From: Haliotis rufescens
Taxonomy: Eukaryota
DNA: 64,000 nt
NCBI RefSeq assembly: GCF_023055435.1
Contig: NW_025964212.1
Coordinates: 2,604,001-2,668,000, forward strand
Reading direction: 5' to 3'
Each line of letters begins with the position of its first letter. The stretch's first letter is position 1. A program made the translations under genes and the position numbers. The notes under the pieces were generated by a model. The model saw nothing but the letters and a program-made list of their open reading frames with translations. It was not told the origin of the DNA and did no database searches. Below, one piece after another: positions 31,293 to 63,644 of the stretch.

Positions 31293-31521
31293 TTCATATT
31301 TGTGTGACTTGCCCTTACTTGTCCGCACAAAATTGATCTTTGAACACACTCAATACCTCTAAAGTTTATTTACCATACTACATCACTAATCCCTGTGTTA
31401 CATGTAATTTGTCATGCTTTCTAAGGCTTGACATCAATCTGTGGGTACTGGAAGATTATGTGCACATATTCCCATTGACCCGTTAAGATCAGGGTAGAAT
31501 AGTTTCATCAACAACCCATGA

Positions 31522-32041: not shown

Positions 32042-32347
32042 TATCCTGTCCCTCCTGGGACACATTATCCTGTCCCTCCTGGGACACATTATCCTGTCCC
32101 TCCTGGAACACATTATCCTGTCCCTCCTGGAACACATTATCCTGTCCCTCCTGGGACACATTATCCTGTCCCTCCTGTCCCTCCTGGGACACATTATCCT
32201 GTCCCTCCTGGGACACATTATCCTGTCCCTCCTGGAACACATTATCCTGTCCCTCCTGGGACACATTATCCTGTCCCTCCTGGGACACATTATCCTGTCC
32301 CTCCTGGGACACATTATCCTGTCCCTCCTGTCCCTCATTATCCTGTC
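32042..32347 (+). repeat. 24-bp minisatellite
   Basis: ttatcctgtccctcctgggacaca units. Confidence 0.93.
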
Positions 32348-32802
32348 CAAAACTAGCAAGTCTACAAGTTAGCAAAAATCTCGGTTTATTGCAGCTCTCA
32401 GGAATGTTAGAAAGCACCTAATTTGAAAAGACATGATTTACAAGTTCTGTCAGTCTCAATAAGTGTCAACAAAAAAAGGGGAACAAGACAATTTGGAAAT
32501 ATCTTCAACAAACATGTACTGCAATACTGGAATGTTTTTTCTATCCTGGTTAACATCAATAATACAGACTACTATCAATTGTGATATCATTAACAACACA
32601 GATTCATTAAGAACACTTTCAAGGCACTTAATCAAATTGTAGAATTGAGGTAACATTGAAAATATCATGAAGCTGTTACAAATGTTTTCAAGGCTGTCCT
32701 GGATATGGTGTATCTAGCTAACTTGTAGAAAATATAAAGTTGGAACAATAAAATACATTCTACATAAACTGCAGCAACAAAATAAATACTTCTCTAATAA
32801 AG

Positions 32803-33290
32803 CAATCTCATTAAAATCAGACCTCAGTTCTCGCTACCGCTAAACAAAGATCTGAGGACATCCCATTAAGGGTCACGTAAGACCGACCTTGCGCGAACTT
32901 TGACCGACCAATAGAATGACCAATCAGAAGGCAGCTTTCTCGTGCTTTACAGCACTAATTTCAAATTGGCAACTACGCTTCGAAACATATTTTGACAAAT
33001 TCTTGATTACAAATTTGAAACCTAAACAAAAGAACATTCTGGAATGGCTAAAGATGGTCTAGATTGTATGGAATCAGGCATTAAACCTGTAACTATCTTT
33101 CGGAATACCCCGTGTTGAAGTTTTCGAGGTTGTGTGATTAGAAATCACATTCCGACTGTCACTTTCCTGATCTGGTAAGCAACGCTCTCATTGGTCGGAT
33201 GAAAGGTTGTTCTGACGTGACCCCTAATGGGATGTCTTCAGATCTTTGTTTAGCGGTAGCGAGAACTAAGGTCTGATTTTAATGAGATTG
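32803..33290. mobile_element. Same MITE family
   Basis: TIRs; 9-bp TSD ctaataaag. Confidence 0.85.
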
Positions 33291-34086
33291 CTAATAAAGT
33301 GGACGGAATGATAATCTGGCTTACAATAAGACAACTAGCATTGATTCGTAGAAACAGAATCACTCAACATAAACATGGACAAACTTTGTAACATAACAAC
33401 GTGTAAAATAACAATGGACGGAGTAAATCTAAGGTCATATGATCGGAGGCTGATACTGCATAAAGCTTTAGATTCTGTAAACAGGCTTTGTACATTAAGA
33501 ATTAATTAAAAGGAGAGCGCTTTACCCTGACAACAAATGTGTTCCGTCATTCAAGGGCATCCTAGATCGGTCCTGCATGGCACTGCATCATGGGACATCA
33601 CAGAACCATCAAGTGACGTCCAGTGTCTGAATCAGCTCAATCCAACAGTGCTTCACTTGCCAGAAGCGTTGATACATTAATTTGGTAACTAGTAAAATGG
33701 CTATACTACAACAATAATAAATTATCACAGATCTTTGCCTGATGTAGCACAGTTACATCAGCTGTCTTGAACACGTCTCCCAGTCTCGTGCCGGGGCTTA
33801 CAGTAGCAGCAGAGTCCAGCTAATCACTATAGTGTAGCATCTTCGTCATTCCACGACCTACTGCTGTGTCTACACACCTTGTTCTGTCGAAAACAACAAG
33901 GTACAACACATTACACCAGGTCACATGACAGTCACATGACAGTCACATGACCGTGAGTAGAAACCAGTCGTGTATTAACACAGCAAGTTCCGCCTCTAGC
34001 TGAGTTCCATAGGAACGTTCATCATAATATCCCCTTTTGTCTCATCTGAAGAACTACTCGGCTACGTGTTCATGCAATGGCGCCCT

Positions 34087-34191
34087 CTAGTGGTAGTGTC
34101 TGGCTGACTGGGCCCTCTGCCGTACACTGTTGCTAGAGGTTTGGCCACGCTGTAGCTGTGAAATTGGTGGATGACCTCGAAACCCTCCAGA
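34087..34191 (-). CDS. CEP126: CEP126-like last coding exon (SGGFRGHPP...RAQSARHYH*)
   Basis: gttacag|; phase 0; TAG stop. Confidence 0.6.
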   Translation of the reverse strand, partial: SGGFRGHPPISQLQRGQTSSNSVRQRAQSARHYH

Positions 34192-46461: not shown

Positions 46462-48362
46462 AGTAAAATCTAAATATTTTTTACATTTGTATACTTATCC
46501 TGCATTACTCCGTATTGCATTTACTGCTATGTTTGACAGAGAGACGAACTGTGTGAGATCCAGCTGCTGAAGAAAGTTGTCCCAACCAGCCCAGGAGGCA
46601 GCGCCCTCTCACAGTCGGCACGTGACCCGGAAGTCATGACGTCACACCAAAAGACATAACTGCTTTAAACATAACATCTGAAACTTCGTGGGGAGGTAGC
46701 GTAGCGAAAGGGAGGGAACTTAGACTTCGTAATGCAGGATAAGTATACAAATGTAAAAAATATTTAGATTTTACTAAATTTTTTAACTTATCCTGCATTA
46801 CTCCGTATTGCATCTTTATCAGACGGCTTGGCCGGTGGGCATACTTGCAGATGTGAACCATATTAAACCCTCGTCAAGGTCCGATGAATCCGCACCGCAT
46901 ACAAGTGATGACCGGAACATCTACGACCATTCCTGTCTTCAGGAAACAAGAGTCGATGCAAAAACGAAACGCCCGAATAGGTAACCGAAATACAATGAGG
47001 CGTGTAGCCAAAATATATAACTTACCGAAGAGCGAAAGCGAAACGCAGTAGAACCTAGAGCTAATCTGAGGTGATAAACACCAGAGAGTTCGACGGGCCC
47101 CGCTCGGGGAATCGAAGAATCAGCGGCGTCGGCGGCAAAATCTACGACCAATCCCAAGATCGAATGCGAAACGCAGGAGAGCCCTCTAGGCTGGAGGCAA
47201 GGAACACCGGTGAGGTCGACGGGCACCGCTCAGGTACCATAGAAGCAGCGGCGTTGGCGTCGGCGCCGGTGTCCACATCTACTACCATTCCTGTCGTCAG
47301 GAAACGAGAGTTGATGCAAAAAGTAAAACCCGGATAGGTGACAGCAATAGAATGAGTCGGGTAACCCAAAACTAAAACTGACCTAAGAGCGAATGCGGAA
47401 CGCAAGAGAGCCGTCTCGTCTGGGGTGATAAACACCAGAAAGGTCGACGGGCCCCGCTCAGGGTATCGGAGAATCAGTGGCGTCGGAGATAGATGACCTG
47501 TTGGGCTACAACCAGGGACCAAAACTTTTACAAACCTGTAGAGGTTATGAATTCTCTGATGAAATCCTCCTTGGGGCACTTATTGCATTTTCCTGGCTCA
47601 AGAAAATCTACATGACATAGTTGTAACCATTTTCCTTAATAAAAATTGTTACCACACAAAAAACTTTGTTTTTGTATGATATACGTCCACCCTTATGGTG
47701 CCTCACCCTCCACGGCGCGTCACGCCAAGGGAAGCAACTCTCACCCAAATCACTTTCCATATGTCTAATGCTGACGGAATGTGGGGAGGCGGGTGGCCGT
47801 GCCCCAAGGAGGATTTCATCAGAGAATTCATAACCTCTACAGGTTTGTAAAATTCTCTTTCAGATTAAATCCTCCTTGGGGCACTTATTGCATCAAGATA
47901 GACTCCTAAAGATAATCTAGGAAGTGGCATCCGTCAGCAACAAGCGTGCATAAAATACATCGTATTTTGATTATTTCAATGAATAAACAAGAGTTCAATA
48001 AATGGAACCAACCTTATCGTGAGGCACCACCGTCGAAAGGCGGGGGCTGGAGACAGGGCGTTATCGACCATACACAATGAAAAGAGCCATTCTTTGTGGC
48101 TCATCATATCGAGAACTCGAGACACACACACCCCCCACCCCACCCACTTTTTTGAACAAGTGATATTGGGGGCACAGATCACGAGAGACTATAAACCCGC
48201 ACAGAGCTAGGCCAGAGGGTCCCCGTAATCGAAGGAGTGCATGTGCAATTACGATGATTATCGACTAGTAATGGCTGGTATTGTATCGACCGTAGAAGAT
48301 AAAATCCGGACCGTTACTGAGCAGTGTTATAACCGGTCCGGGCGGTCTAAAATCTCGAAGGC

Positions 48363-51300
48363 TCAATCGGCTAGAGATGTAGTACTTTGCCCAGTTCGGA
48401 GAACTGACTGACCAAACCGAGCACGCTCGCTTGAGTGTTTGTCGAGTTGGTAATGTTTGATGAACGTGCTCGGCTGGCTCCAAATAGCCGCGGAGCAGAT
48501 CTCCTCAATGGGCAGAGCCGCAGCATACGCTTGTGTCGTAGCCACTGCTCTAACCGAATGAGCCTTCAACTTGGTAGGGGGGTCCCTGCCTTGAAGCGTG
48601 TACGCCGTACATATAGTAGAGACTATCCACCGCGAGATAGTTTGTTTGCTCGCAGGTGAGCCAGCCTTCCTACCGCCATAACAGCAAAATAGTTGATTAT
48701 CCTTACGGATACCCTTAGTTCTGCTGATATAGGACTTAAGGGTCCTGCGGACATCCAATACATGAGCATGTCTTGTAGTGGTCCCCGACGAGGAAGGCTG
48801 TGAAAGAGCAGGTAGCTCAATAGGAGCCGTCACGTGGAAGGCGTGTGCGACCTTAGGACGGTAAGAGTCCGGCAGGCGAATACTGACCCTGTCCCGGTGA
48901 AAGACAGTTAGTTCGGGATCGGCTGACATTGCGTGAATGTCGCCTACCCGTCTGCCGGACGTTACCGCCACAAGGAACGCCGTCTTCCAGCTCAACAGCT
49001 GAAGAGAGAGAGACGACAGATCCCGAAAGGAAGGACCGGACAGCCAATCAAGAACGATTGACAATTCCCAAGGGGGACTGATCCGCCGGACAGGCGGTCG
49101 GATCCTGTCCACACCTGCTAAAAAACGCTGCACTAATGGGTGCGCACCCAAAAGTGCCCCGTCGACGGGGACGTGAAAGGCAGCGATAGCTGTAGAGTAC
49201 CCCCGGACTGTCGATGCGGCCAGGCCGACATCTAGTCGCGACTGGAGGAACTCAAGTACGGCTACGAGATCTGCAGAAAAGGGATCTGCAATCCTTCTAT
49301 CGACACACCAGCGCGCATAGCAGGCCCATCTATCCTCGTACTGAACGTTTGTCGAATCCCTCCGCGAAGCCAGTATTGTGTCTGCAACTCGTGCAGGAAT
49401 ACCGCTCTCCTGGAGGCGATTCCGGACAGTGGCCAAGCCACCCACTGAATCCTGGGATTCGGGTGGAGGGCCTCGTTCTGGGATAGGAGGTCCGGTCGTA
49501 AAGGTAATAGAACAGGAGGCTGAGCCAGAAACCTGAGTATGACTGGAAACCAACTCTGCGCCGACCAAAGGGGTGCCAGGAGCACAAGTAGTCGCGCAGG
49601 CTGAGTGGCTAGCTGAGACAGGACCTTGGAAATCAGAGGTACTGGGGGGAATGCCCACAGTATTCTGTCCGTCCAATCTAGCTGGAAGGCGTCCGGTGCC
49701 ACCGACCTCGGGTCGGGGACTCGGGAGCAGAACGTTGGTGTCTGGTGATTCACCCCAGACGCAAACAGATCCACCTGGAACGACCCGTATAACTGGGAGA
49801 TAATCCCGAATATCCCCGGGTCGAGCCTCCACTCGTGAGGAGCGAGGATCCGGCGAGACAGAGCGTCCGCACGGACGTTGTCTACCCCCGGGAGATAAAC
49901 AGGTAGCACCCTGATAACGTGTGAGTCGCACCATAGGAGGAACTGCCACGTCTCTTGGAGAAGCGACGGAGACACCGTTCCCCCCTGCTTCCGGATGTAA
50001 GTCATCGCCGTTTGGTTGTCCATCTCTAGACGCACCACTTGGCCACGAAGCAGATCCAGGAAGCGTTGGAACACCAACCTGACCGCTCTCAGTTCTAGCA
50101 CATTGATATGCAGTTTGATCTCCTGCTGGGACCATAGTCCCGAGGCAGTGTGATCGTTCAGAACGCCTCCCCAGCCGGAGAGTGACGCGTCTGTTTGAAC
50201 TGTGAGAGACGGCACGGGAGTGTCGAGGGGGAGCCCCCGGGACAGATTCCCGACCTCGGTCCACCACTGAAGGTGTGCATTGAGCCACTGCGGAGTCTCG
50301 AGAACAGTCTCGAGATCTTCCGAGTTCACCCAAAGTCGACGGAGCGCTTGTTGAATGGGTCTCATTCTCAAGCGCGCCCGCCAAACCACATCCACTGTCG
50401 CCGCCATGTTGCCCAGTAACTGGAGCCATGTACGAGCAGTGTGACTGGCGGACAGAAGGAACTGGGAAGTAACACTTCTGACCTTGGTACTGCGATCTTG
50501 TGACAGAGATACAAGTCCGCTCACCGTGTTGAAATTCGCCCCTAGGAAGACTAGATTCTGAGTAGGGCTCAGATCTGACTTCTTGAGATTGACTATCCAC
50601 CCTAGAGTGATCAGAATATCTATCACTTGTTGTGTAGCTATCTGACTCAGGGATTGCGATAGAGCTCTTAGTAACCAGTCGTCGAGGTACGGATGGCAGA
50701 ACCGACCTTTTGACCTGGCCACTTGGGCGGGAATCAACATCAGCTTGGTGAACACCCTCGGGGCCGTAGCGATCCCGAATGGTAGAACCCTGAACTGATA
50801 ACACCTCCCGTCGAAAGAAAACCTGAGGTATTTCTTGAACTCGGGGTGTATGGGTACGTGGAGATAGGCGTCTTTTAGGTCTATTGACGTTAGCCATTCT
50901 CCGGTCTCGACAGCTGAGATCACCGAGCGCAGTGTCTCCATCCTGAAGGACGGTACCTCTATAAGTTTGTTCAGCCTTCTCAGATTGAGAATAGGCCTGA
51001 ACCCTCCGTCTTTTTTGGTGACTAGGAAATATGTCGAGTAGAAGCCCTCGCTTTCCTGTCCCACGGGAACCGGTTCGATCGCAGCCTTCATAAGAAGTGC
51101 GTCGACCTCGGCACGGAGGAATTCCGCCCTCTCCAGGGTAGCAGGCACCGGAGTGTGCTTTATCCCGGAGAAGGGGGGCGGATGATGTTTCCACCGAGGC
51201 AAATGGCCATCCCTTAGAGTGGACAGGGTCCAGGGATTGGATGTGACTGTCTCCCATTCCTGCAGGAATAGAGCCAGTCGGCCGCCTACGGGGACATCCG

Positions 51301-51695
51301 GCTTGAGGCAGCAGACCCCGGCTGTCGGCAGTTCGAAAACATGCGACCGTGGGTCCGCCCGGGGCGCTTCGGGCGCTAATGGGAACCCGATGGGTTCCCG
51401 GCCCCGCGAAAAGGCTGCTGGCCTCGACCAGCTGCCCTGCCCCGGCCCCTGCCTCTCTTGCTCCTCCCGGCGCCCTTACCTGAAGGAAGCGGCTGCTTCC
51501 AAGCAGGTGCAGACTTCTGACCCGGCGCGTCAGCGTAGGAGGAAGCAAGTGGAGAGGTCCGCTTACGCGGTTTAACGCATGGTACCTCCAACAAGGCCTT
51601 AGAATCCTTGATGGAGGCATACAACTGTGCGGCCTCTCGGACCACCTGCTGAGCCCCAGGGAAGAGGGTGGCACCCATCTTATAAGGCAAAGCAA
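48363..51695 (-). CDS. DIRS tyrosine recombinase ORF, copy A; YR domain in the last ~350 codons, the rest overlaps pol and gag
   Basis: KTAFLVAVTSGRRVGDIHAM, HSVRA, AAIWS...FIKHY (R-HxxR-W-Y catalytic set). Confidence 0.93.
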   Translation of the reverse strand: MLCLIRWVPPSSLGLSRWSERPHSCMPPSRILRPCWRYHALNRVSGPLHLLPPTLTRRVRSLHLLGSSRFLQVRAPGGAREAGAGAGQLVEASSLFAGPGTHRVPISARSAPGGPTVACFRTADSRGLLPQAGCPRRRPTGSIPAGMGDSHIQSLDPVHSKGWPFASVETSSAPLLRDKAHSGACYPGEGGIPPCRGRRTSYEGCDRTGSRGTGKRGLLLDIFPSHQKRRRVQAYSQSEKAEQTYRGTVLQDGDTALGDLSCRDRRMANVNRPKRRLSPRTHTPRVQEIPQVFFRREVLSVQGSTIRDRYGPEGVHQADVDSRPSGQVKRSVLPSVPRRLVTKSSIAIPESDSYTTSDRYSDHSRVDSQSQEVRSEPYSESSLPRGEFQHGERTCISVTRSQYQGQKCYFPVPSVRQSHCSYMAPVTGQHGGDSGCGLAGALENETHSTSAPSTLGELGRSRDCSRDSAVAQCTPSVVDRGRESVPGAPPRHSRAVSHSSNRRVTLRLGRRSERSHCLGTMVPAGDQTAYQCARTESGQVGVPTLPGSASWPSGASRDGQPNGDDLHPEAGGNGVSVASPRDVAVPPMVRLTRYQGATCLSPGGRQRPCGRSVSPDPRSSRVEARPGDIRDYLPVIRVVPGGSVCVWGESPDTNVLLPSPRPEVGGTGRLPARLDGQNTVGIPPSTSDFQGPVSASHSACATTCAPGTPLVGAELVSSHTQVSGSASCSITFTTGPPIPERGPPPESQDSVGGLATVRNRLQESGIPARVADTILASRRDSTNVQYEDRWACYARWCVDRRIADPFSADLVAVLEFLQSRLDVGLAASTVRGYSTAIAAFHVPVDGALLGAHPLVQRFLAGVDRIRPPVRRISPPWELSIVLDWLSGPSFRDLSSLSLQLLSWKTAFLVAVTSGRRVGDIHAMSADPELTVFHRDRVSIRLPDSYRPKVAHAFHVTAPIELPALSQPSSSGTTTRHAHVLDVRRTLKSYISRTKGIRKDNQLFCCYGGRKAGSPASKQTISRWIVSTICTAYTLQGRDPPTKLKAHSVRAVATTQAYAAALPIEEICSAAIWSQPSTFIKHYQLDKHSSERARFGQSVLRTGQSTTSLAD
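49262..51475 (-). CDS. DIRS pol: reverse transcriptase, RNase H and Dam-like methyltransferase, copy A (open from 51475, no upstream ATG)
   Basis: RT: VGGRL..F..W, KKDGGFRPILNL, IDLKDAY, LPFG, YLDDWL. RNase H: TDAS..GWG, HINVLEL, DN, ADALSR. MT: VDLFAS..N, WAFPP. Confidence 0.95.
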   Translation of the reverse strand, partial: GRREEQERQGPGQGSWSRPAAFSRGREPIGFPLAPEAPRADPRSHVFELPTAGVCCLKPDVPVGGRLALFLQEWETVTSNPWTLSTLRDGHLPRWKHHPPPFSGIKHTPVPATLERAEFLRAEVDALLMKAAIEPVPVGQESEGFYSTYFLVTKKDGGFRPILNLRRLNKLIEVPSFRMETLRSVISAVETGEWLTSIDLKDAYLHVPIHPEFKKYLRFSFDGRCYQFRVLPFGIATAPRVFTKLMLIPAQVARSKGRFCHPYLDDWLLRALSQSLSQIATQQVIDILITLGWIVNLKKSDLSPTQNLVFLGANFNTVSGLVSLSQDRSTKVRSVTSQFLLSASHTARTWLQLLGNMAATVDVVWRARLRMRPIQQALRRLWVNSEDLETVLETPQWLNAHLQWWTEVGNLSRGLPLDTPVPSLTVQTDASLSGWGGVLNDHTASGLWSQQEIKLHINVLELRAVRLVFQRFLDLLRGQVVRLEMDNQTAMTYIRKQGGTVSPSLLQETWQFLLWCDSHVIRVLPVYLPGVDNVRADALSRRILAPHEWRLDPGIFGIISQLYGSFQVDLFASGVNHQTPTFCSRVPDPRSVAPDAFQLDWTDRILWAFPPVPLISKVLSQLATQPARLLVLLAPLWSAQSWFPVILRFLAQPPVLLPLRPDLLSQNEALHPNPRIQWVAWPLSGIASRRAVFLHELQTQYWLRGGIRQTFSTRIDGPAMRAGVSIEGLQIPFLQIS

Positions 51696-53349
51696 GTAGA
51701 TCCTGGCGTGTGGAAGCCGAGTATTTGGATACCGACATCCACAGCCTGCGCATGCCCATGACTGCGCACATCATCTGCGAGGCACAGCTACGAATAGCGT
51801 CCCTCGCAAGATGACTATGTACCTCCGTCAGTTGCGCGGCCAACTCCGAAGAGTCGGCCGGCCCCTCTCCCGCTAACTCCCTCTGTACGGCCGACAGATA
51901 AGCGGAGTGTACGGACACCCGGAGCTGCTGACATGCGTTACGATATTGCTCCTCGAAGCAAACGTAAGCAGCCTTCAGCTCCGTACCGCACGCGGGAAAG
52001 GGTGGCAACCGCCGGCCCTGCTTGACCTTAGCCAAGTTGGGGGTCGAAGACCCCCCCAGGGTAACGGAGGTCCAGACGCATTCGTCCACCACCGGTACCT
52101 CAAAATCACCATCCTCTGCTAACGGGTACCGCTTAATAAGTTCGGGCAGGTCGAACTTCCTGCGGGCACCCGACAACAGAGGGTTGATGACTTCATGCAC
52201 CAATGAAGACAGAATACGGAGCCGCACCTGGGGCGCCTTGCTCGGAGCAAAAGCGTCCCCCGGAAGGCGGAACTCAGTCGGATCCGACTGGGGCATGGGC
52301 GCAGCCACCTGAGGCAGTACCTGGACAATTTTGTCCCGTACATGCCTCAACGAGGAAACGAAGGAAAATATTCCCGAGGTCTCCGAGTCGTCTCCCCCCT
52401 CCTCCATCCACTCCTCCTCTCTCGATTCCGAGCCGAAATTAATCGACTCTTCCCCGAGAGAAGAGGCAGACGAAGTCGGAAGGGGACGCCCGAAGGCCTG
52501 GGCCTTCGCATCCCCGGGCTGCACCCGGCCCGAAGCCGAGTCCCGGTCCCGAGGTGCCGGGGGTTCAAGGGAACCCACCTGGCTCTGGGCTAGAAATCCG
52601 CTAGAGGAAGCCTCGGCCTCGGAAGAGGCGTCTGGCTCCGCTAGGGAGAACTGTGCGTCGGTAGTGAACGGGCCAGTGCCCGCCACCCCTCCGCTGGGGA
52701 GCGACCTCGAGCCGGCGCCGAAGCCCGGTCTGAGTTCGTCCCCGAGACCAAGTGGCCTGCCTCGGCCGACGCCGGGCATATCACAAGGTCTCGAAGCCGC
52801 GTCCGGCGCCGACAACGGGGAAGGCTCGGTCCGCAACTCCTCTCGGAGCTGAGACTTTACCTCCTCCATCATCGACGCCATCTGCGACCTCAACAAGGCA
52901 GAGATGTCTGCCAAAGACGGTGCAGGAGAGGGTGCAGTGATTGTGACGGGGACCCTAGAGCCTTCTCCCCCGGCCCCCGGGGAGGGAGCGGAGGAGACAG
53001 TCTCAGCTGCCTTTTTACCCTTTCTTACTTTTTTTGAGGGGGGCGGGGCGGTCTTTGCCGACCTAATGTCCACCCCCGCCTTCAATAGACCCTTAAAGTG
53101 TAAGAGGTCCACATTTCTCTTTTTTTGCGCCCGTGGTGTAAATGCAACACAGATCGGGCATGACCCATCGTCATGCCCGTCTTCGGCCAAACACTTTATG
53201 CAGGTATCATGCCTGTCTTGGGGGGGAATCGAAGCCGAGCACCCCGTACACAGTTTGAAGGTCTGTAAAAAAGACCGTAATTTTTGAGTTTGGCGGGAAG
53301 GGTAATAAAGTGTATCAGTGCGATTGAAAGATCGGAAAGATACGTGCAT
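51376..53349 (-). CDS. DIRS gag-like ORF1, copy A
   Basis: N-terminal CxxC...H..CxxC...H...CxxC zinc-finger motif; position 5' of pol; first ATG at 53349. Confidence 0.85.
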   Translation of the reverse strand: MHVSFRSFNRTDTLYYPSRQTQKLRSFLQTFKLCTGCSASIPPQDRHDTCIKCLAEDGHDDGSCPICVAFTPRAQKKRNVDLLHFKGLLKAGVDIRSAKTAPPPSKKVRKGKKAAETVSSAPSPGAGGEGSRVPVTITAPSPAPSLADISALLRSQMASMMEEVKSQLREELRTEPSPLSAPDAASRPCDMPGVGRGRPLGLGDELRPGFGAGSRSLPSGGVAGTGPFTTDAQFSLAEPDASSEAEASSSGFLAQSQVGSLEPPAPRDRDSASGRVQPGDAKAQAFGRPLPTSSASSLGEESINFGSESREEEWMEEGGDDSETSGIFSFVSSLRHVRDKIVQVLPQVAAPMPQSDPTEFRLPGDAFAPSKAPQVRLRILSSLVHEVINPLLSGARRKFDLPELIKRYPLAEDGDFEVPVVDECVWTSVTLGGSSTPNLAKVKQGRRLPPFPACGTELKAAYVCFEEQYRNACQQLRVSVHSAYLSAVQRELAGEGPADSSELAAQLTEVHSHLARDAIRSCASQMMCAVMGMRRLWMSVSKYSASTRQDLLALPYKMGATLFPGAQQVVREAAQLYASIKDSKALLEVPCVKPRKRTSPLASSYADAPGQKSAPAWKQPLPSGKGAGRSKRGRGRGRAAGRGQQPFRGAGNPSGSH

Positions 53350-54052
53350 AAATTGTGTAACTAGAAGCAAAGGCGTAATTTAGAATGCGATTGGTAACGC
53401 GATACTAATAGCCAATGTCGTAGTATAATTATAACACCAAAGTGGGCGTGTTACGCGCGAAGGTGTAGAAAACCCGTAAAAAAGGTAAGTGTAATTTAAA
53501 ATAATTAACACACCACCTTGGGTTTATTTAAAGGAAAAGATTGTAGGCTAAAGCCCGATGATATAGATTAAAAAACCGAAGCCGTTTTTGATGGCCCTGG
53601 TGTTACATATATCATACGTGGCACTACAAAATGGACGCTACGACGGCCTTATTTCAAAGGTATCGTACACGTGTCACATAATTACAACTTTATAACTTTA
53701 CAATGCGAGGTATTACGCCTTTGCATGAAAGAAATGTACCATACATACAGTTTGGTCTGCCATGGTTCTTGTACAAACGATAATCTTGTCTTTATATTGT
53801 CTTGAAAAAAACAGCACGTCTGTCTTTGTCAGATGACATAAGGAAAGTGATTTGGGTGAGAGTTGCTTCCCTTGGCGTGACGCGCCGTGGAGGGTGAGGC
53901 ACCATAAGGGTGGACGTATATCATACAAAAACAAAGTTTTTTGTGTGGTAACAATTTTTATTAAGGAAAATGGTTACAACTATGTCATGTAGATTTTCTT
54001 GAGCCAGGAAAATGCAATAAGTGCCCCAAGGAGGATTTAATCTGAAAGAGAA

Positions 54053-55604
54053 TGTGAACGCCGGCGACAACTTTCAAGGCTACATCACGGAAGTAGTGGT
54101 TGGTGAAGGCGGTGTCCGATCGCCACGAACAGGCTTCCCTGAACGACGGGATGGAACAGTATACCGTGAAGAACCAGTGTAAATACGATCGCCCTGATCT
54201 CATTTTATTTCAGGTAATAGCCTTTGGGGGGAGGGTCCAATCCGGCGGCTCATACGCTTTAAGGATGACCGCCCGGAGCCACAGGGAAAAGTATTCCGGC
54301 TGACCAACGACAGCGACGAAGGGGAGACCGGCAGAAAAAGGTGTTTCCTAGACTTGCGGCAGTCTTTAGATCGTAGAATAACCTTCAGTGCCCTTACTGG
54401 GCATAATGACGCTCATCCTCATCCTCGGCACCCACACTGGACGAGGGGGGAGGGGACAAGGAATGATCTATCAGGCTGTCCTGGGCGTTGAGTCTTTACG
54501 CTGACGTCCCAGTACGGTCCATGATGAACGGCGCCCTGGGTACCGCATTCGAACCGGGCATGGGAGACGTCGAGGGCGTGCTGTACATGGACTCGAGCGG
54601 CAGTAGTCAAAACCAGTAGAAACACCCGTCTTCTACTTAAGGTCGAAGAAGGAAGACGAGGGGAGTGGTTCGAAGGGCATTGAAGACCACATTCAGATCC
54701 AACGCAGGCGGTCCGAACTTGGTCTTCAGGTCTTCAAGACTGAACGAGCGCAGCCAGGCCCGTAGGTCGGGAATTTTCGTCTTTCTCCGATCGTCCGGGA
54801 TGGCCAGAAAGGAGTAGATGGCGACCAGGTATGTGGGGGTGGTAAGCCCTTCAACCGATGGGTGCTACACAAGTACAGAAGGAACTGATCCAGGATCTGC
54901 GGTGACGCTGTCATCGGATCCTGGTGTTTGTCAGAACAAAATGCCTGGAACAAGCATCATTTATCAGCATACAGTCCCCCTGTAGATGGACGGTGGGCTG
55001 AAGCAATAGCCTTGGTCGCTCTAGCCGAATAGCCCTTGGCTTTCTGCATGTGTGTCAGGCGTGCAGACGATAACATGCGGGTATGAGGGTGTGGCAACAG
55101 ACCGTGTGGATGGAGCAGAAGGTTGGACCACACCGGAAGTTCCAGGGGTTGTCTCTGGCTATGTTTCGGAGGTCGATAACCCAACTTCTGGCTGACCAAT
55201 AAGGCGAGACCAAAGTCAATGGCAGGGGTCGAGTGGCCTGGATCTCTGAAGAACCGTGGGAGGGAGAACCGGAGTCGGAAAAGCGTACGCGCGTAATCCT
55301 TCTCAGGAACGATGGAAGGCTTCGACTGCCACAGCGGTCGTATCCGGCACAGGTGGAATGGAAGACGACTGCTGGCCACATTCAGATATGAGGCAAACAG
55401 ATCTAGGGTTGGGGTGTCGACCGTTTCACATAGTCTGGCCCGAGGCGCCGGAGAGCGTGAGGCGTCGGAGAGCTTGGGGCGCCTGGAACGCCTAAGATGG
55501 TGATTCTCGGGGGCGCCGGTCGAGTTTGTAGCGCCGGGAGAGGGGCGAGAACTCTGGGTCCGCAAACACCACACTACGGTGACGTCGTCAGTGGACACGA
55601 TCAA
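54053..55604 (-). pseudogene. Degraded YR, methyltransferase and RNase H remnants of the host DIRS
   Basis: STDDVTVVWCL (RH); TPTLDLFASYLN (MT); KGYSARATKAIASAHRPST, FLLVLTTAARVHVQHALD, CSWRSDTAFTNHYFRD (YR); many frameshifts. Confidence 0.85.
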
Positions 55605-57044
55605 CAGGGCGTGACCGAGAATGCACTGTCAGCAAGTGCCGTCCTGGATAAGCATTTATCTCGAGGCTGTTGCTGTGCCTATGGTGTTGATCTCTGGATC
55701 ACAGGTGGTCACAATGTGGGCTGGCGTGGGCCACTAGCCACTGACAAGGTGGCAGGGGAGGTAGTCAGCAACAGGGGTCTGCGATTGCGTACCGTCGGTA
55801 CGATTCGGAAAAAGGTGTGATCGCCTGCGAGCCAACCTCAAGTAGACGAAGTAAACTAGCTTCACAATCGACCGCCGGGGCATCGACGTAACCGGGTAGT
55901 AGGAAGTCGAGGCAATATGGCCATTGCACGAAGTAATGAGATCGTTTTCATCCCTGAAGCGGCGTATAAGTACTCCTGTTCTTATATCGAGGTGACGATG
56001 GAGGACGACAACACGATACGAGGCAGGTATGCAACAGGGGTCAGTGGGACGGCCGAGGGACTTTAAGTATCAAATCGACACTGTGTCCGGTAGTCAAGGC
56101 GGAAGATAGGAAGGTGTCGTAGTCGAAAAGATCAAACCGGACGAAGGAAGGCGATCTTTTCCATCCCTTGAACGCCTATAGGCGCTATCGTTCTTATAGC
56201 GAAGGGTTTTTACAAACCTGTAGAGGTTATGAATTCTCTGATGAAATCCTCCTTGGGGCACTTATTGCATTTTCCTGGCTCAAGAAAATCTACATGACAT
56301 AGTTGTAACCATTTTCCTTAATAAAAATTGTTACCACACAAAAAACTTTGTTTTTGTATGATATACGTCCACCCTTATGGTGCCTCACCCTCCACGGCGC
56401 GTCACGCCAAGGGAAGCAACTCTCACCCAAATCACTTTCCATATGTCTAATGCTGACGGAATGTGGGGAGGCGGGTGGCCGTGCCCCAAGGAGGATTTCA
56501 TCAGAGAATTCATAACCTCTACAGGTTTGTAAAATTCTCTTTCAGATTAAATCCTCCTTGGGGCACTTATTGCATCAAGATAGACTCCTAAAGATAATCT
56601 AGGAAGTGGCATCCGTCAGCAACAAGCGTGCATAAAATACATCGTATTTTGATTATTTCAATGAATAAACAAGAGTTCAATAAATGGAACCAACCTTATC
56701 GTGAGGCACCACCGTCGAAAGGCGGGGGCTGGAGACAGGGCGTTATCGACCATACACAATGAAAAGAGCCATTCTTTGTGGCTCATCATATCGAGAACTC
56801 GAGACACACACACCCCCCACCCCACCCACTTTTTTGAACAAGTGATATTGGGGGCACAGATCACGAGAGACTATAAACCCGCACAGAGCTAGGCCAGAGG
56901 GTCCCCGTAATCGAAGGAGTGCATGTGCAATTACGATGATTATCGACTAGTAATGGCTGGTATTGTATCGACCGTAGAAGATAAAATCCGGACCGTTACT
57001 GAGCAGTGTTATAACCGGTCCGGGCGGTCTAAAATCTCGAAGGC

Positions 57045-60000
57045 TCAATCGGCTAGAGATGTAGTACTTTGCCCAGTTCGGAGAACTGACTGACCAAACC
57101 GAGCACGCTCGCTTGAGTGTTTGTCGAGTTGGTAATGTTTGATGAACGTGCTCGGCTGGCTCCAAATAGCCGCGGAGCAGATCTCCTCAATGGGCAGAGC
57201 CGCAGCATACGCTTGTGTCGTAGCCACTGCTCTAACCGAATGAGCCTTCAACTTGGTAGGGGGGTCCCTGCCTTGAAGCGTGTACGCCGTACATATAGTA
57301 GAGACTATCCACCGCGAGATAGTTTGTTTGCTCGCAGGTGAGCCAGCCTTCCTACCGCCATAACAGCAAAATAGTTGATTATCCTTACGGATACCCTTAG
57401 TTCTGCTGATATAGGACTTAAGGGTCCTGCGGACATCCAATACATGAGCATGTCTTGTAGTGGTCCCCGACGAGGAAGGCTGTGAAAGAGCAGGTAGCTC
57501 AATAGGAGCCGTCACGTGGAAGGCGTGTGCGACCTTAGGACGGTAAGAGTCCGGCAGGCGAATACTGACCCTGTCCCGGTGAAAGACAGTTAGTTCGGGA
57601 TCGGCTGACATTGCGTGAATGTCGCCTACCCGTCTGCCGGACGTTACCGCCACAAGGAACGCCGTCTTCCAGCTCAACAGCTGAAGAGAGAGAGACGACA
57701 GATCCCGAAAGGAAGGACCGGACAGCCAATCAAGAACGATTGACAATTCCCAAGGGGGACTGATCCGCCGGACAGGCGGTCGGATCCTGTCCACACCTGC
57801 TAAAAAACGCTGCACTAATGGGTGCGCACCCAAAAGTGCCCCGTCGACGGGGACGTGAAAGGCAGCGATAGCTGTAGAGTACCCCCGGACTGTCGATGCG
57901 GCCAGGCCGACATCTAGTCGCGACTGGAGGAACTCAAGTACGGCTACGAGATCTGCAGAAAAGGGATCTGCAATCCTTCTATCGACACACCAGCGCGCAT
58001 AGCAGGCCCATCTATCCTCGTACTGAACGTTTGTCGAATCCCTCCGCGAAGCCAGTATTGTGTCTGCAACTCGTGCAGGAATACCGCTCTCCTGGAGGCG
58101 ATTCCGGACAGTGGCCAAGCCACCCACTGAATCCTGGGATTCGGGTGGAGGGCCTCGTTCTGGGATAGGAGGTCCGGTCGTAAAGGTAATAGAACAGGAG
58201 GCTGAGCCAGAAACCTGAGTATGACTGGAAACCAACTCTGCGCCGACCAAAGGGGTGCCAGGAGCACAAGTAGTCGCGCAGGCTGAGTGGCTAGCTGAGA
58301 CAGGACCTTGGAAATCAGAGGTACTGGGGGGAATGCCCACAGTATTCTGTCCGTCCAATCTAGCTGGAAGGCGTCCGGTGCCACCGACCTCGGGTCGGGG
58401 ACTCGGGAGCAGAACGTTGGTGTCTGGTGATTCACCCCAGACGCAAACAGATCCACCTGGAACGACCCGTATAACTGGGAGATAATCCCGAATATCCCCG
58501 GGTCGAGCCTCCACTCGTGAGGAGCGAGGATCCGGCGAGACAGAGCGTCCGCACGGACGTTGTCTACCCCCGGGAGATAAACAGGTAGCACCCTGATAAC
58601 GTGTGAGTCGCACCATAGGAGGAACTGCCACGTCTCTTGGAGAAGCGACGGAGACACCGTTCCCCCCTGCTTCCGGATGTAAGTCATCGCCGTTTGGTTG
58701 TCCATCTCTAGACGCACCACTTGGCCACGAAGCAGATCCAGGAAGCGTTGGAACACCAACCTGACCGCTCTCAGTTCTAGCACATTGATATGCAGTTTGA
58801 TCTCCTGCTGGGACCATAGTCCCGAGGCAGTGTGATCGTTCAGAACGCCTCCCCAGCCGGAGAGTGACGCGTCTGTTTGAACTGTGAGAGACGGCACGGG
58901 AGTGTCGAGGGGGAGCCCCCGGGACAGATTCCCGACCTCGGTCCACCACTGAAGGTGTGCATTGAGCCACTGCGGAGTCTCGAGAACAGTCTCGAGATCT
59001 TCCGAGTTCACCCAAAGTCGACGGAGCGCTTGTTGAATGGGTCTCATTCTCAAGCGCGCCCGCCAAACCACATCCACTGTCGCCGCCATGTTGCCCAGTA
59101 ACTGGAGCCATGTACGAGCAGTGTGACTGGCGGACAGAAGGAACTGGGAAGTAACACTTCTGACCTTGGTACTGCGATCTTGTGACAGAGATACAAGTCC
59201 GCTCACCGTGTTGAAATTCGCCCCTAGGAAGACTAGATTCTGAGTAGGGCTCAGATCTGACTTCTTGAGATTGACTATCCACCCTAGAGTGATCAGAATA
59301 TCTATCACTTGTTGTGTAGCTATCTGACTCAGGGATTGCGATAGAGCTCTTAGTAACCAGTCGTCGAGGTACGGATGGCAGAACCGACCTTTTGACCTGG
59401 CCACTTGGGCGGGAATCAACATCAGCTTGGTGAACACCCTCGGGGCCGTAGCGATCCCGAATGGTAGAACCCTGAACTGATAACACCTCCCGTCGAAAGA
59501 AAACCTGAGGTATTTCTTGAACTCGGGGTGTATGGGTACGTGGAGATAGGCGTCTTTTAGGTCTATTGACGTTAGCCATTCTCCGGTCTCGACAGCTGAG
59601 ATCACCGAGCGCAGTGTCTCCATCCTGAAGGACGGTACCTCTATAAGTTTGTTCAGCCTTCTCAGATTGAGAATAGGCCTGAACCCTCCGTCTTTTTTGG
59701 TGACTAGGAAATATGTCGAGTAGAAGCCCTCGCTTTCCTGTCCCACGGGAACCGGTTCGATCGCAGCCTTCATAAGAAGTGCGTCGACCTCGGCACGGAG
59801 GAATTCCGCCCTCTCCAGGGTAGCAGGCACCGGAGTGTGCTTTATCCCGGAGAAGGGGGGCGGATGATGTTTCCACCGAGGCAAATGGCCATCCCTTAGA
59901 GTGGACAGGGTCCAGGGATTGGATGTGACTGTCTCCCATTCCTGCAGGAATAGAGCCAGTCGGCCGCCTACGGGGACATCCGGCTTGAGGCAGCAGACCC

Positions 60001-60377
60001 CGGCTGTCGGCAGTTCGAAAACATGCGACCGTGGGTCCGCCCGGGGCGCTTCGGGCGCTAATGGGAACCCGATGGGTTCCCGGCCCCGCGAAAAGGCTGC
60101 TGGCCTCGACCAGCTGCCCTGCCCCGGCCCCTGCCTCTCTTGCTCCTCCCGGCGCCCTTACCTGAAGGAAGCGGCTGCTTCCAAGCAGGTGCAGACTTCT
60201 GACCCGGCGCGTCAGCGTAGGAGGAAGCAAGTGGAGAGGTCCGCTTACGCGGTTTAACGCATGGTACCTCCAACAAGGCCTTAGAATCCTTGATGGAGGC
60301 ATACAACTGTGCGGCCTCTCGGACCACCTGCTGAGCCCCAGGGAAGAGGGTGGCACCCATCTTATAAGGCAAAGCAA
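57045..60377 (-). CDS. DIRS tyrosine recombinase ORF, copy B
   Basis: SGRRVGD, HSVRA, FIKHY; identical translation to copy A. Confidence 0.93.
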   Translation of the reverse strand: MLCLIRWVPPSSLGLSRWSERPHSCMPPSRILRPCWRYHALNRVSGPLHLLPPTLTRRVRSLHLLGSSRFLQVRAPGGAREAGAGAGQLVEASSLFAGPGTHRVPISARSAPGGPTVACFRTADSRGLLPQAGCPRRRPTGSIPAGMGDSHIQSLDPVHSKGWPFASVETSSAPLLRDKAHSGACYPGEGGIPPCRGRRTSYEGCDRTGSRGTGKRGLLLDIFPSHQKRRRVQAYSQSEKAEQTYRGTVLQDGDTALGDLSCRDRRMANVNRPKRRLSPRTHTPRVQEIPQVFFRREVLSVQGSTIRDRYGPEGVHQADVDSRPSGQVKRSVLPSVPRRLVTKSSIAIPESDSYTTSDRYSDHSRVDSQSQEVRSEPYSESSLPRGEFQHGERTCISVTRSQYQGQKCYFPVPSVRQSHCSYMAPVTGQHGGDSGCGLAGALENETHSTSAPSTLGELGRSRDCSRDSAVAQCTPSVVDRGRESVPGAPPRHSRAVSHSSNRRVTLRLGRRSERSHCLGTMVPAGDQTAYQCARTESGQVGVPTLPGSASWPSGASRDGQPNGDDLHPEAGGNGVSVASPRDVAVPPMVRLTRYQGATCLSPGGRQRPCGRSVSPDPRSSRVEARPGDIRDYLPVIRVVPGGSVCVWGESPDTNVLLPSPRPEVGGTGRLPARLDGQNTVGIPPSTSDFQGPVSASHSACATTCAPGTPLVGAELVSSHTQVSGSASCSITFTTGPPIPERGPPPESQDSVGGLATVRNRLQESGIPARVADTILASRRDSTNVQYEDRWACYARWCVDRRIADPFSADLVAVLEFLQSRLDVGLAASTVRGYSTAIAAFHVPVDGALLGAHPLVQRFLAGVDRIRPPVRRISPPWELSIVLDWLSGPSFRDLSSLSLQLLSWKTAFLVAVTSGRRVGDIHAMSADPELTVFHRDRVSIRLPDSYRPKVAHAFHVTAPIELPALSQPSSSGTTTRHAHVLDVRRTLKSYISRTKGIRKDNQLFCCYGGRKAGSPASKQTISRWIVSTICTAYTLQGRDPPTKLKAHSVRAVATTQAYAAALPIEEICSAAIWSQPSTFIKHYQLDKHSSERARFGQSVLRTGQSTTSLAD
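57944..60157 (-). CDS. DIRS pol (RT-RNaseH-MT), copy B
   Basis: YLDD, TDAS, VDLFAS, WAFPP; identical translation to copy A. Confidence 0.95.
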   Translation of the reverse strand, partial: GRREEQERQGPGQGSWSRPAAFSRGREPIGFPLAPEAPRADPRSHVFELPTAGVCCLKPDVPVGGRLALFLQEWETVTSNPWTLSTLRDGHLPRWKHHPPPFSGIKHTPVPATLERAEFLRAEVDALLMKAAIEPVPVGQESEGFYSTYFLVTKKDGGFRPILNLRRLNKLIEVPSFRMETLRSVISAVETGEWLTSIDLKDAYLHVPIHPEFKKYLRFSFDGRCYQFRVLPFGIATAPRVFTKLMLIPAQVARSKGRFCHPYLDDWLLRALSQSLSQIATQQVIDILITLGWIVNLKKSDLSPTQNLVFLGANFNTVSGLVSLSQDRSTKVRSVTSQFLLSASHTARTWLQLLGNMAATVDVVWRARLRMRPIQQALRRLWVNSEDLETVLETPQWLNAHLQWWTEVGNLSRGLPLDTPVPSLTVQTDASLSGWGGVLNDHTASGLWSQQEIKLHINVLELRAVRLVFQRFLDLLRGQVVRLEMDNQTAMTYIRKQGGTVSPSLLQETWQFLLWCDSHVIRVLPVYLPGVDNVRADALSRRILAPHEWRLDPGIFGIISQLYGSFQVDLFASGVNHQTPTFCSRVPDPRSVAPDAFQLDWTDRILWAFPPVPLISKVLSQLATQPARLLVLLAPLWSAQSWFPVILRFLAQPPVLLPLRPDLLSQNEALHPNPRIQWVAWPLSGIASRRAVFLHELQTQYWLRGGIRQTFSTRIDGPAMRAGVSIEGLQIPFLQIS

Positions 60378-62031
60378 GTAGATCCTGGCGTGTGGAAGCC
60401 GAGTATTTGGATACCGACATCCACAGCCTGCGCATGCCCATGACTGCGCACATCATCTGCGAGGCACAGCTACGAATAGCGTCCCTCGCAAGATGACTAT
60501 GTACCTCCGTCAGTTGCGCGGCCAACTCCGAAGAGTCGGCCGGCCCCTCTCCCGCTAACTCCCTCTGTACGGCCGACAGATAAGCGGAGTGTACGGACAC
60601 CCGGAGCTGCTGACATGCGTTACGATATTGCTCCTCGAAGCAAACGTAAGCAGCCTTCAGCTCCGTACCGCACGCGGGAAAGGGTGGCAACCGCCGGCCC
60701 TGCTTGACCTTAGCCAAGTTGGGGGTCGAAGACCCCCCCAGGGTAACGGAGGTCCAGACGCATTCGTCCACCACCGGTACCTCAAAATCACCATCCTCTG
60801 CTAACGGGTACCGCTTAATAAGTTCGGGCAGGTCGAACTTCCTGCGGGCACCCGACAACAGAGGGTTGATGACTTCATGCACCAATGAAGACAGAATACG
60901 GAGCCGCACCTGGGGCGCCTTGCTCGGAGCAAAAGCGTCCCCCGGAAGGCGGAACTCAGTCGGATCCGACTGGGGCATGGGCGCAGCCACCTGAGGCAGT
61001 ACCTGGACAATTTTGTCCCGTACATGCCTCAACGAGGAAACGAAGGAAAATATTCCCGAGGTCTCCGAGTCGTCTCCCCCCTCCTCCATCCACTCCTCCT
61101 CTCTCGATTCCGAGCCGAAATTAATCGACTCTTCCCCGAGAGAAGAGGCAGACGAAGTCGGAAGGGGACGCCCGAAGGCCTGGGCCTTCGCATCCCCGGG
61201 CTGCACCCGGCCCGAAGCCGAGTCCCGGTCCCGAGGTGCCGGGGGTTCAAGGGAACCCACCTGGCTCTGGGCTAGAAATCCGCTAGAGGAAGCCTCGGCC
61301 TCGGAAGAGGCGTCTGGCTCCGCTAGGGAGAACTGTGCGTCGGTAGTGAACGGGCCAGTGCCCGCCACCCCTCCGCTGGGGAGCGACCTCGAGCCGGCGC
61401 CGAAGCCCGGTCTGAGTTCGTCCCCGAGACCAAGTGGCCTGCCTCGGCCGACGCCGGGCATATCACAAGGTCTCGAAGCCGCGTCCGGCGCCGACAACGG
61501 GGAAGGCTCGGTCCGCAACTCCTCTCGGAGCTGAGACTTTACCTCCTCCATCATCGACGCCATCTGCGACCTCAACAAGGCAGAGATGTCTGCCAAAGAC
61601 GGTGCAGGAGAGGGTGCAGTGATTGTGACGGGGACCCTAGAGCCTTCTCCCCCGGCCCCCGGGGAGGGAGCGGAGGAGACAGTCTCAGCTGCCTTTTTAC
61701 CCTTTCTTACTTTTTTTGAGGGGGGCGGGGCGGTCTTTGCCGACCTAATGTCCACCCCCGCCTTCAATAGACCCTTAAAGTGTAAGAGGTCCACATTTCT
61801 CTTTTTTTGCGCCCGTGGTGTAAATGCAACACAGATCGGGCATGACCCATCGTCATGCCCGTCTTCGGCCAAACACTTTATGCAGGTATCATGCCTGTCT
61901 TGGGGGGGAATCGAAGCCGAGCACCCCGTACACAGTTTGAAGGTCTGTAAAAAAGACCGTAATTTTTGAGTTTGGCGGGAAGGGTAATAAAGTGTATCAG
62001 TGCGATTGAAAGATCGGAAAGATACGTGCAT
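60058..62031 (-). CDS. DIRS gag-like ORF1, copy B
   Basis: Identical translation to copy A. Confidence 0.85.
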   Translation of the reverse strand: MHVSFRSFNRTDTLYYPSRQTQKLRSFLQTFKLCTGCSASIPPQDRHDTCIKCLAEDGHDDGSCPICVAFTPRAQKKRNVDLLHFKGLLKAGVDIRSAKTAPPPSKKVRKGKKAAETVSSAPSPGAGGEGSRVPVTITAPSPAPSLADISALLRSQMASMMEEVKSQLREELRTEPSPLSAPDAASRPCDMPGVGRGRPLGLGDELRPGFGAGSRSLPSGGVAGTGPFTTDAQFSLAEPDASSEAEASSSGFLAQSQVGSLEPPAPRDRDSASGRVQPGDAKAQAFGRPLPTSSASSLGEESINFGSESREEEWMEEGGDDSETSGIFSFVSSLRHVRDKIVQVLPQVAAPMPQSDPTEFRLPGDAFAPSKAPQVRLRILSSLVHEVINPLLSGARRKFDLPELIKRYPLAEDGDFEVPVVDECVWTSVTLGGSSTPNLAKVKQGRRLPPFPACGTELKAAYVCFEEQYRNACQQLRVSVHSAYLSAVQRELAGEGPADSSELAAQLTEVHSHLARDAIRSCASQMMCAVMGMRRLWMSVSKYSASTRQDLLALPYKMGATLFPGAQQVVREAAQLYASIKDSKALLEVPCVKPRKRTSPLASSYADAPGQKSAPAWKQPLPSGKGAGRSKRGRGRGRAAGRGQQPFRGAGNPSGSH

Positions 62032-63644
62032 AAATTGTGTAACTAGAAGCAAAGGCGTAATTTAGAATGCGATTGGTAACGCGATACTAATAGCCAATGT
62101 CGTAGTATAATTATAACACCAAAGTGGGCGTGTTACGCGCGAAGGTGTAGAAAACCCGTAAAAAAGGTAAGTGTAATTTAAAATAATTAACACACCACCT
62201 TGGGTTTATTTAAAGGAAAAGATTGTAGGCTAAAGCCCGATGATATAGATTAAAAAACCGAAGCCGTTTTTGATGGCCCTGGTGTTACATATATCATACG
62301 TGGCACTACAAAATGGACGCTACGACGGCCTTATTTCAAAGGTATCGTACACGTGTCACATAATTACAACTTTATAACTTTACAATGCGAGGTATTACGC
62401 CTTTGCATGAAAGAAATGTACCATACATACAGTTTGGTCTGCCATGGTTCTTGTACAAACGATAATCTTGTCTTTATATTGTCTTGAAAAAAACAGCACG
62501 TCTGTCTTTGTCAGATGACATAAGGAAAGTGATTTGGGTGAGAGTTGCTTCCCTTGGCGTGACGCGCCGTGGAGGGTGAGGCACCATAAGGGTGGACGTA
62601 TATCATACAAAAACAAAGTTTTTTGTGTGGTAACAATTTTTATTAAGGAAAATGGTTACAACTATGTCATGTAGATTTTCTTGAGCCAGGAAAATGCAAT
62701 AAGTGCCCCAAGGAGGATTTAATCTGAAAGAGAATGATGAAACAAGGTTCCTCGTGACAGCCGTGTTGGTAGAGGAGGTCTATTGTTTCCAACATCCGTG
62801 CATGGATGGACTGCGACAGGCGCCTGGTTGAGTGGTATCACCAAGCGTACAGGTAGACATGGAAACCAATCTGTAGAAATACATGGCACCCCTTGCCATG
62901 GTAAGTTGACCTAAATCCGGTCGGAGTTGTTGACAGTCCGAGTACTTGACACGTGACATGTAAATCACTCTGCGCAGTAGCCGAGAAAACCGCCTTGGAG
63001 TCGGAACTGAGGTGCAAACTCCACACACAGACAATCCTCAATGAACTGTGTGAGAGACGATCAAGTGGTGTACCCGAGTTTTGCGATAAAACACGGAACC
63101 CCATGGGCGTCGTGTAAAACCCGGGGAGCGCCGAGGAAGAGTCTCTCTCAGGAACGCTGGCGCTAGGGTAGGGTAGAACAGCGTTGATGTCTGCGATGTC
63201 GACGAAGTAAACTCTTTGTAAGTGGATGTCGTCATCGAATCTGATACAGACGCTGTTCACATGGCGCTCTGTTTCGATGGAAACCCGCAGGTCATCTCTC
63301 CGGAATCATAGCGCTTTAAACGACGGGATTATGGATAACGTCTCAGTGGGCAAGCTGAATCAGACCAACTGTCTATTGGTTGAAATGATTCCACCCAGGA
63401 AGTAGTACGATAGTCACGATCCCGAAGACCGACGGGAGAGTAGCGACAGGAGCGGCGACAGTTGTTTCACCATGCTTCTCCGTGTGACGAGTTATGAGAC
63501 GGCAGCAAGAGAAGAGGGCAGTGGCGCCGGGGAGGCGATTGCCGATGGTGCCCCTTAAGCCGCAGTAGAAGATCGGATGGTCGGCTCGTTGATCTGAGCT
63601 TGATAAAGCTTGTTGATCTGAAGCTTGTTGAGCGCCGAAGACAT

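Follow-up and report, generated by a model that had tools for sequence, protein, structure and literature searches.

The window analysed here, 64,000 nucleotides (nt) of the Haliotis rufescens genome (assembly GCF_023055435.1, contig NW_025964212.1, positions 2,604,001 to 2,668,000), carries on its minus strand, at 47526-54053, an intact DIRS1-like retrotransposon (copy A). At the end of its gag open reading frame (ORF) there is a conserved candidate recoding site, CAG_CCU_UUU_CGC (51417-51406), which contains the heptamer G_CCU_UUU (51415-51409). We propose that G_CCU_UUU_CGC and the hairpin 3' of it may constitute a two-way programmed frameshift site, at which +1 shifting would yield a fusion of Gag with the tyrosine recombinase (Gag-YR) and -1 shifting a Gag-Pol fusion, and we put the chances that both operate together at about even. 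Taken separately, the +1 shift to Gag-YR is probable and the -1 shift to Gag-Pol is somewhat favoured, the +1 half being the better supported by sequence comparison. A sequence-only reading of the window had suggested that one site could serve both fusions, and comparison with related elements lends this idea support.

In the proposed mechanism most ribosomes would end Gag at the UAG stop. Some would slip +1, with tRNA-Phe moving from UUU to UUC, and enter the YR frame, and some would slip -1, with tRNA-Phe moving from UUU to the overlapping UUU, and enter the pol frame. The pause would be supplied by the slow CGC codon together with the hairpin. The predicted products, reckoned from the predicted spliced gag start, are Gag of 633 amino acids, Gag-YR of ~1637 amino acids (junction QQPF/AGPGT) and Gag-Pol of ~1338 amino acids (junction QQPF/SRGRE). 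We infer these translation events from the sequence, the frames, conservation and the enrichment statistics described below.

The site at the end of gag and its conservation

The sequence-only reading had described a 9-nt spacer (51408-51400) after the heptamer, followed by a perfect 8-bp hairpin (51399-51381) that ends 2 nt before the gag stop, and this is confirmed. The hairpin has a folding energy of -13.3 kcal/mol; of 120 positions drawn at random from the element, only two have one this strong 5-10 nt downstream. Stimulators of -1 shifting typically stand at a spacer of 5-9 nt (PMC3542737; statements on papers cited by PMC number refer to the available parts of their texts). As also claimed, the pol frame opens at 51475 and has no ATG ahead of the conserved VGGRL block or the reverse transcriptase (RT) domain; its first ATG (51091) lies inside RT, 198 nt past the VGGRL valine. 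The +1 frame, that of YR, is open from 51770 to 48363, and its first ATG past the slip site is at 51257. Copy B of the element, offset by 8682 nt and with no mismatches to copy A over 6529 nt, carries the identical site.

The heptamer had been called non-canonical, and G_CCU_UUU does break the XXX part of the X_XXY_YYZ rule at its first base, but it is less odd than it seemed, as C_CCU_UUU serves for -1 shifting in West Nile virus, where changes at the first position are reported not to reduce it (PMC11797035). The two sites share the Pro-Phe CCU_UUU core and a 3' structure, whereas in the window the first base is G, the structure is a simple hairpin, not a pseudoknot, and the prediction includes a +1 product. 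The overlapping UUU_CGC resembles the UUU_CGN +1 site of influenza PA-X and amalgaviruses (PMC5052127, PMC5009743), with the motif in frame, often after an NCY codon, and an open +1 frame; it is kept in relatives of the element. The window site differs from these in belonging to a retrotransposon, in its overlap with a candidate -1 heptamer and in the hairpin that follows. The available text of PMC5009743 makes no mention of DIRS elements. The gag stop of the window has no long in-frame ORF behind it, as a readthrough site would, since the frame closes 90 nt further on; in the sister subfamily the stop is UAA with further stops behind it.

The earlier reading had proposed conservation of the motif and stem as a check, and both are kept in the sister subfamilies. 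The heptamer, UUU_CG and stem are intact in 28 of the 30 best genomic copies. In the sister subfamily L132, none of 14 core positions and none of 16 stem positions has changed, against 31% divergence at other positions; CAG_CCU_UUU_CG, the frame geometry, the stem and the exact spacing to VGGRL are all kept, and in its pol frame there is a stop only four codons upstream of the site. Subfamily 3 (L263) shows one core change and one stem change (one G-U). Among copies the hairpin loop varies while the stem is kept. Throughout this clade YR lies in +1 and pol in -1 relative to gag.

Further evidence comes from more distant relatives. Four intact related Gags have QQPFRG followed by 5-11 residues as their C-terminus. 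A YR homologue with 57% identity (P0126) starts with GPSSLFAEEGG, which is the +1 reading of the tail of a Gag (P0121) that is 44% identical to the window Gag, and each of the two proteins is listed on a 9155-nt contig. At one of 1001 offsets the two peptides decode to a single sequence, consisting of G_CCU_UUU_CGC, a 6-nt spacer, a 12-bp hairpin and a UAA stop. The decoded hairpin (-21.8 kcal/mol, z -3.5, with 3 of 1000 shuffles equally stable) differs from that of the window, 14 of 33 bases matching, and stands at a similar spacing. Entry into pol by a -1 shift would call for just these features, namely a differing hairpin at 5-9 nt, conservation of the U ahead of UUU and a stop that does not leak, and we suggest that in the window's clade a hairpin 6-9 nt downstream may drive -1 shifting into pol. 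In another relative (P0122) changes keep the stem, though only under an assumed +1 peptide. A one-off indel in the window copy is ruled out as the origin of the frame geometry, which is common to the subfamilies and the distant relative.

Several other candidates were set aside. Composition explains why the +1 frame is open in the gag tail and why the pol frame is open, and neither was taken as evidence. A second UUU_CG (51338-51334) in the YR frame, by which two +1 shifts would lead to pol, is absent from older copies and from the sisters. A CUU_UUU_CGC variant might have argued against -1 shifting; it belongs to a decayed non-autonomous subfamily with broken gag and pol. With 59 exact motif matches, this larger subfamily (L233-L261) is present in probable RNA contigs; its ORFs are broken, internal segments are deleted and gag carries tandem repeats of 183 bp. 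The hairpin region (51381-51400) is a hot spot of 6-16-nt deletions in old copies (L192-L194, L202, L204, L207, L117, L134, L135).

Candidate recoding signals across DIRS1-like relatives

The relatives compared comprise 80 metagenome loci, 12 loci from metagenome-assembled genomes (MAGs; L129 left out) and two other families from the abalone genome. Of 93 anchored loci, 90 have a gag ORF, which reaches at least 100 codons in 86. In 70 of these a single stop separates gag from YR in the same frame, 13 have gag and pol sharing a frame, and three show the rotated arrangement of the window; the counts include duplicates, decayed copies, the mis-anchored rows L107, L108 and L113, and two loci (L067, L086) that stop ~500 nt early. 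Dropping 11 redundant rows left 47 canonical elements, and an enlarged non-redundant set holds 55. The DIRS contigs found inside bacterial MAGs in GTDB (L119-L130) are most likely host contamination. A search of viral contigs for relatives found nothing, and a pattern search for the site returned only unrelated repeats.

In the canonical elements the gag stop is UGA in 38, UAG in nine and UAA in none of 47, and UGA-CUA occurs in ten of them (background ~1%); in the 55-element set UGA-C is found in 28 and UAA in one. The YR stop is UAA in 16 of 28. UGA-CUA and UAG-G are type II and type III readthrough contexts (PMC3159437), and these relatives do have a long in-frame ORF past a stop that looks leaky. 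Pol lies in +1 of gag, and 24 of the 55 elements have no pol-frame ATG before VGGRL.

Two kinds of candidate +1 signal stand out. The sequence-only reading had named UUU_CGN as a +1 motif, and in the gag/pol overlap UUU_CG occurs in frame in 16 of 47 elements, against 8.0±2.0 in synonymous shuffles, none of 2000 of which reached 16. Phe-Arg pairs are coded as UUU_CG in 17 of 26 cases in the overlap and 12 of 42 outside it (P=0.005). The second signal is a codon before the gag stop of antizyme type, that is, one on the antizyme shift-site list (PMC1874602) or CUU, which is found in 18 of 55 elements against a background of 9.8% (P=3e-6). None of these 18 has UUU_CG, compared with 21 of the 37 others (P=2e-5; 3 of 53 in a control zone), and the shifty-stop trait has changed at least 11 times on the tree (FastTree). 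The relatives resemble antizyme shifty stops and type II and III readthrough sites (PMC1874602, PMC3159437) in ending gag with UCC, CCC, UUU, GUU, AUU or CUU before UGA or UAG, or with UGA-CUA or UAG-G; the likeness applies to them and not to the window. In the 18 relatives (L031-L128) the stop that forms an antizyme-type +1 site also shares its frame with YR and could therefore allow termination, readthrough and +1 shifting alike.

These patterns suggest that canonical DIRS1-like elements likely produce Gag-Pol through a +1 shift, and Gag-YR when ribosomes read through a leaky gag stop. In most relatives the shift would take place at UUU_CG or at an antizyme-type shifty stop. The +1 site of the window was likely inherited from such elements, the direction of change being itself inferred from comparison. 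In the window's clade the downstream frames are one base off, so that a +1 shift would reach YR and the gag stop need not leak. Stop-start overlaps noticed by eye at relatives' gag stops fall in the third frame and were rejected. No splice acceptor position common to 51 relatives was found before VGGRL, and the bases before the relatives' UUU_CG sites do not form a splice acceptor.

Several results weigh against this account. The window hairpin is modest compared with shuffles (z -1.5, 83 of 1000 equally stable; z -1.6 for the surrounding 121 nt), and no compensatory change occurs among the subfamilies. A hairpin as strong stands at 3 of 22 canonical UUU_CG sites, and the hairpin therefore does not prove -1 shifting. 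The nucleotide sequence behind P0121 and P0126 is derived from their proteins, not read from DNA. The open pol frame from the site to VGGRL is expected from the YR peptide alone (P 0.62-1.0) and so is not counted as support. The mutual exclusion of UUU_CG and shifty stops, after phylogenetic pairing, comes down to six independent pairs on supported branches, never discordant and not significant (median p 0.125-0.25). Neither UUU_CG nor an NUU or NCC codon before the stop is present in 15 of the 55 canonical elements (seven with the looser UUU_C). In a minority of loci (L034, L091, L046/L047, L068, L044 and L105) it is pol that shares the gag frame, one stop away, and the YR frame, in -1, opens 28-106 nt ahead of the stop codon of gag; how YR would be reached is not evident in these, and other mechanisms therefore exist. 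Finally, predicted splicing could give pol another route in the window element.

Splicing and other possible routes to pol and YR

Splicing is the main rival to a two-way slip. It would leave YR to the +1 shift at UUU_CGC and take pol from a spliced mRNA, in which either a leader exon (MADQT) is spliced to AAG at 51302, so that the product reads MADQT-PDVPVGGRL, or an intron of 62/65 nt that begins at 51479 is removed, linking gag to pol; we regard this as unlikely, though it is the best placed of the alternatives. The gag start itself is predicted to be spliced (ATG 53763, donor 53748, acceptor 53263). This arrangement is kept in the sister subfamily, the leader exon and its donor included, and the element therefore probably uses the spliceosome; the alternative start ATG 53349 is not kept in old copies. 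A 486-nt spliceosomal intron at the start of gag is unusual for a retrotransposon. The AAG acceptor lies in pol phase 0 just ahead of the conserved block, with AG in three subfamilies, and is a poorer acceptor (60% pyrimidines) than the CAG of gag (73%). The short intron would keep gag and pol in frame but is purine-rich. Its donor, CAG/GTAAGG at 51479, which the sequence-only reading had offered as an alternative to frameshifting, is present as described but not conserved, the GT being GC in both sister subfamilies. Splicing to pol would also leave unexplained why a hairpin is kept at -1 spacing, and it finds no counterpart in an acceptor position shared by the 51 relatives.

The RNA evidence consists of assembled contigs from runs guessed to be RNA. 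Splice junctions had been thought worth seeking by the earlier reading; contigs of all three probable RNA runs covering 51150-51650 run across 51302 and 51415 with no such junction, a weak test, as contigs drop rare forms. Among the joints listed there is no spliced contig for the leader-exon intron either, and contigs of other probable RNA runs cross the predicted gag acceptor unspliced, so splicing may occur and yet not show in these contigs. A joint between 53211 and 51415 in run X13 has non-canonical ends, in a contig with a further deletion, and was read as a deleted copy; the decayed non-autonomous subfamily explains several of the joints seen. A joint of the element ends (47525/54053) in four of four runs is how the internal complementary region (ICR) reads and is no evidence of circles.

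A second alternative retains the -1 shift at the heptamer and hairpin for pol and has YR initiated at its own AUG, 51257, on a shorter RNA or through reinitiation; UUU_CG would then be a by-product of the heptamer. The strong context of this AUG, its presence in three subfamilies (and a Met in P0126) and the efficiency of PA-X-type +1 shifting, only ~1-2%, speak for such a start. Against this, the CG after UUU is kept, and between the site and the AUG the YR frame is open in the window, L132, L188 and P0126 (with one stop in the dead copy L263), where the gag frame has 1-3 stops. Of 55 relatives, 20 lack a YR AUG or have the first one >300 nt past VGGRL, so AUG 51257 looks like a by-product of Glu-Trp codons, and we consider this explanation improbable.

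Less probable still is initiation of pol at the non-AUG codon CUG 51331, whether through internal entry or through reinitiation past the gag stop. The window, L132 and subfamily 3 all keep this CUG and a G at -3, but such a start would account neither for the conservation of CCU nor for a hairpin located ahead of the gag stop, and no reinitiation element was identified. It is very improbable that the rotated frames are a defect and the motif a relic of a family without Pol that is mobilised in trans: few relatives have rotated frames and the RT of DIRS-1 is able to act in trans (PMC7192593), but at least 17 genomic copies keep the pol frame open, the geometry is common to three subfamilies and a relative at 57% identity, and a truly non-autonomous subfamily decays at once. 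The two-way slip at the end of gag is the reading that we prefer.

The element, its surroundings and known systems

The window element belongs to the DIRS1-like superfamily. Its inverted terminal repeats (ITRs) are 211 nt long and 99% complementary, and its ICR is complementary to both element ends with a 3-nt circle junction, AAT. Its pol combines RT, RNase H and a methyltransferase (RVT_1 2e-21; RT_RNaseH 2e-3 and Dam 4e-4, the latter two falling below curated cut-offs). The YR ORF overlaps pol and contains R, HxxR and Y motifs, which we take to be its catalytic signature; overlap and motifs were read in the sequence, and homologues exist, while the ORF has no Pfam or PDB match. The element is young and multi-copy, with at least 40 matches in the genome (all 40 that were scored of 206 candidates), 14 of them listed at 100% identity over the whole query, and the same 737-codon open pol frame recurs in at least 17 genomic copies. 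Its nearest named homologues are Haliotis proteins. Feature coordinates are collected in Table 1.

Table 1. Features of the DIRS1-like element in the window and the basis on which each was assigned
Feature	Position	Strand	Basis
DIRS1-like retrotransposon, copy A	47526..54053	-	ITR/ICR repeats; LAP2alpha, RVT_1, RNase H, Dam matches
DIRS1-like retrotransposon, copy B	56208..62735	-	offset 8682 from copy A; recoding site 60058-60097
Left ITR	53835..54045	-	repeat analysis
Right ITR	47555..47765	-	repeat analysis
ICR with AAT circle junction	47799..47893	-	repeat analysis
Predicted leader exon, ATG + 4 codons (MADQT), then donor GTATGT	53749..53763	-	kept in sister subfamily despite third-position changes
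Predicted 486-nt intron at gag start	53263..53748	-	homology to sister resumes at pyrimidine tract + acceptor
gag main exon, frame 0; predicted Gag 633 aa; stop UAG 51378-51376	51376..53262	-	ORF, profile match, splice prediction
G_CCU_UUU, predicted -1 slip heptamer into pol	51409..51415	-	sequence; conserved
UUU_CGC, predicted +1 shift site into YR	51406..51411	-	enriched across relatives; conserved
8-bp hairpin, predicted -1 stimulator, 9 nt past heptamer	51381..51399	-	stem kept while loop varies; different hairpin similarly placed in relative
pol ORF (RT, RNase H, methyltransferase-like), -1 frame, no ATG before RT, predicted entry 51409	49262..51475	-	ORF + domain matches
YR ORF, +1 frame, overlaps all of pol, predicted entry 51407	48363..51770	-	ORF + motifs
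Possible 65/62-nt GT-AG intron joining gag to pol in frame (rival)	51415..51479	-	26% pyrimidine; donor GC in sisters; none in RNA contigs
Weak AAG acceptor, pol phase 0 (rival: leader exon to pol)	51302..51304	-	AG in three subfamilies; no RNA joint

Copy A is flanked (54055-56207 and ~47140-47525) by decayed pieces of another DIRS-like element, in which methyltransferase-like and YR-like frames were read by eye; this suggests an insertion into an older DIRS. Elsewhere in the window, ~6700-7800 and 24800-41600 hold a 21-nt tandem array and several dispersed inverted-repeat elements.

The element is like described DIRS1-like retrotransposons (PMC3266345, PMC7192593) in its ITRs, its ICR with the AAT junction, its LAP2alpha-like gag part, the order RT-RNase H-methyltransferase and a YR overlapping pol. 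It differs in the predicted intron that opens gag and in its complete pol/YR overlap, no long overlap being listed for the mollusc elements in the available text of PMC3266345. How pol and YR get translated is not stated in the available parts of PMC3266345 and PMC7192593. Frameshifting has been proposed for the YR of Ngaro, likewise a YR retrotransposon (Poulter and Butler 2015, as quoted in PMC13003380), but there the RT/RNase H-YR overlap is in -1 and the quotation names no site, whereas the window site lies at the end of gag. Beyond this quotation we found no literature on readthrough, frameshifting or an in-frame stop in DIRS elements, although Goodwin and Poulter, and Poulter and Butler 2015, may carry general remarks. 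We also drew on the available parts of PMC6681497, PMC8547959, PMC3783388, PMC5633606 and PMC9210276.

Each of the two predicted recoding signals resembles known viral ones. In arteriviruses one site serves both -2 and -1 shifting, and we know of no natural site that pairs +1 with -1. We hold with about equal belief and doubt the wider proposal that one ten-base site and one hairpin give both shifts, and with them two essential enzymes of 1300-1600 amino acids, rewired from an undescribed DIRS-wide scheme of +1 shifting and readthrough with repeated switching. If this is true, recoding modes would have been swapped within one element family, and a natural two-way site with two functional products would be a compact model of frame choice by a ribosome paused on UUU. 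The comparison yields concrete, short and testable signals for the whole DIRS group.
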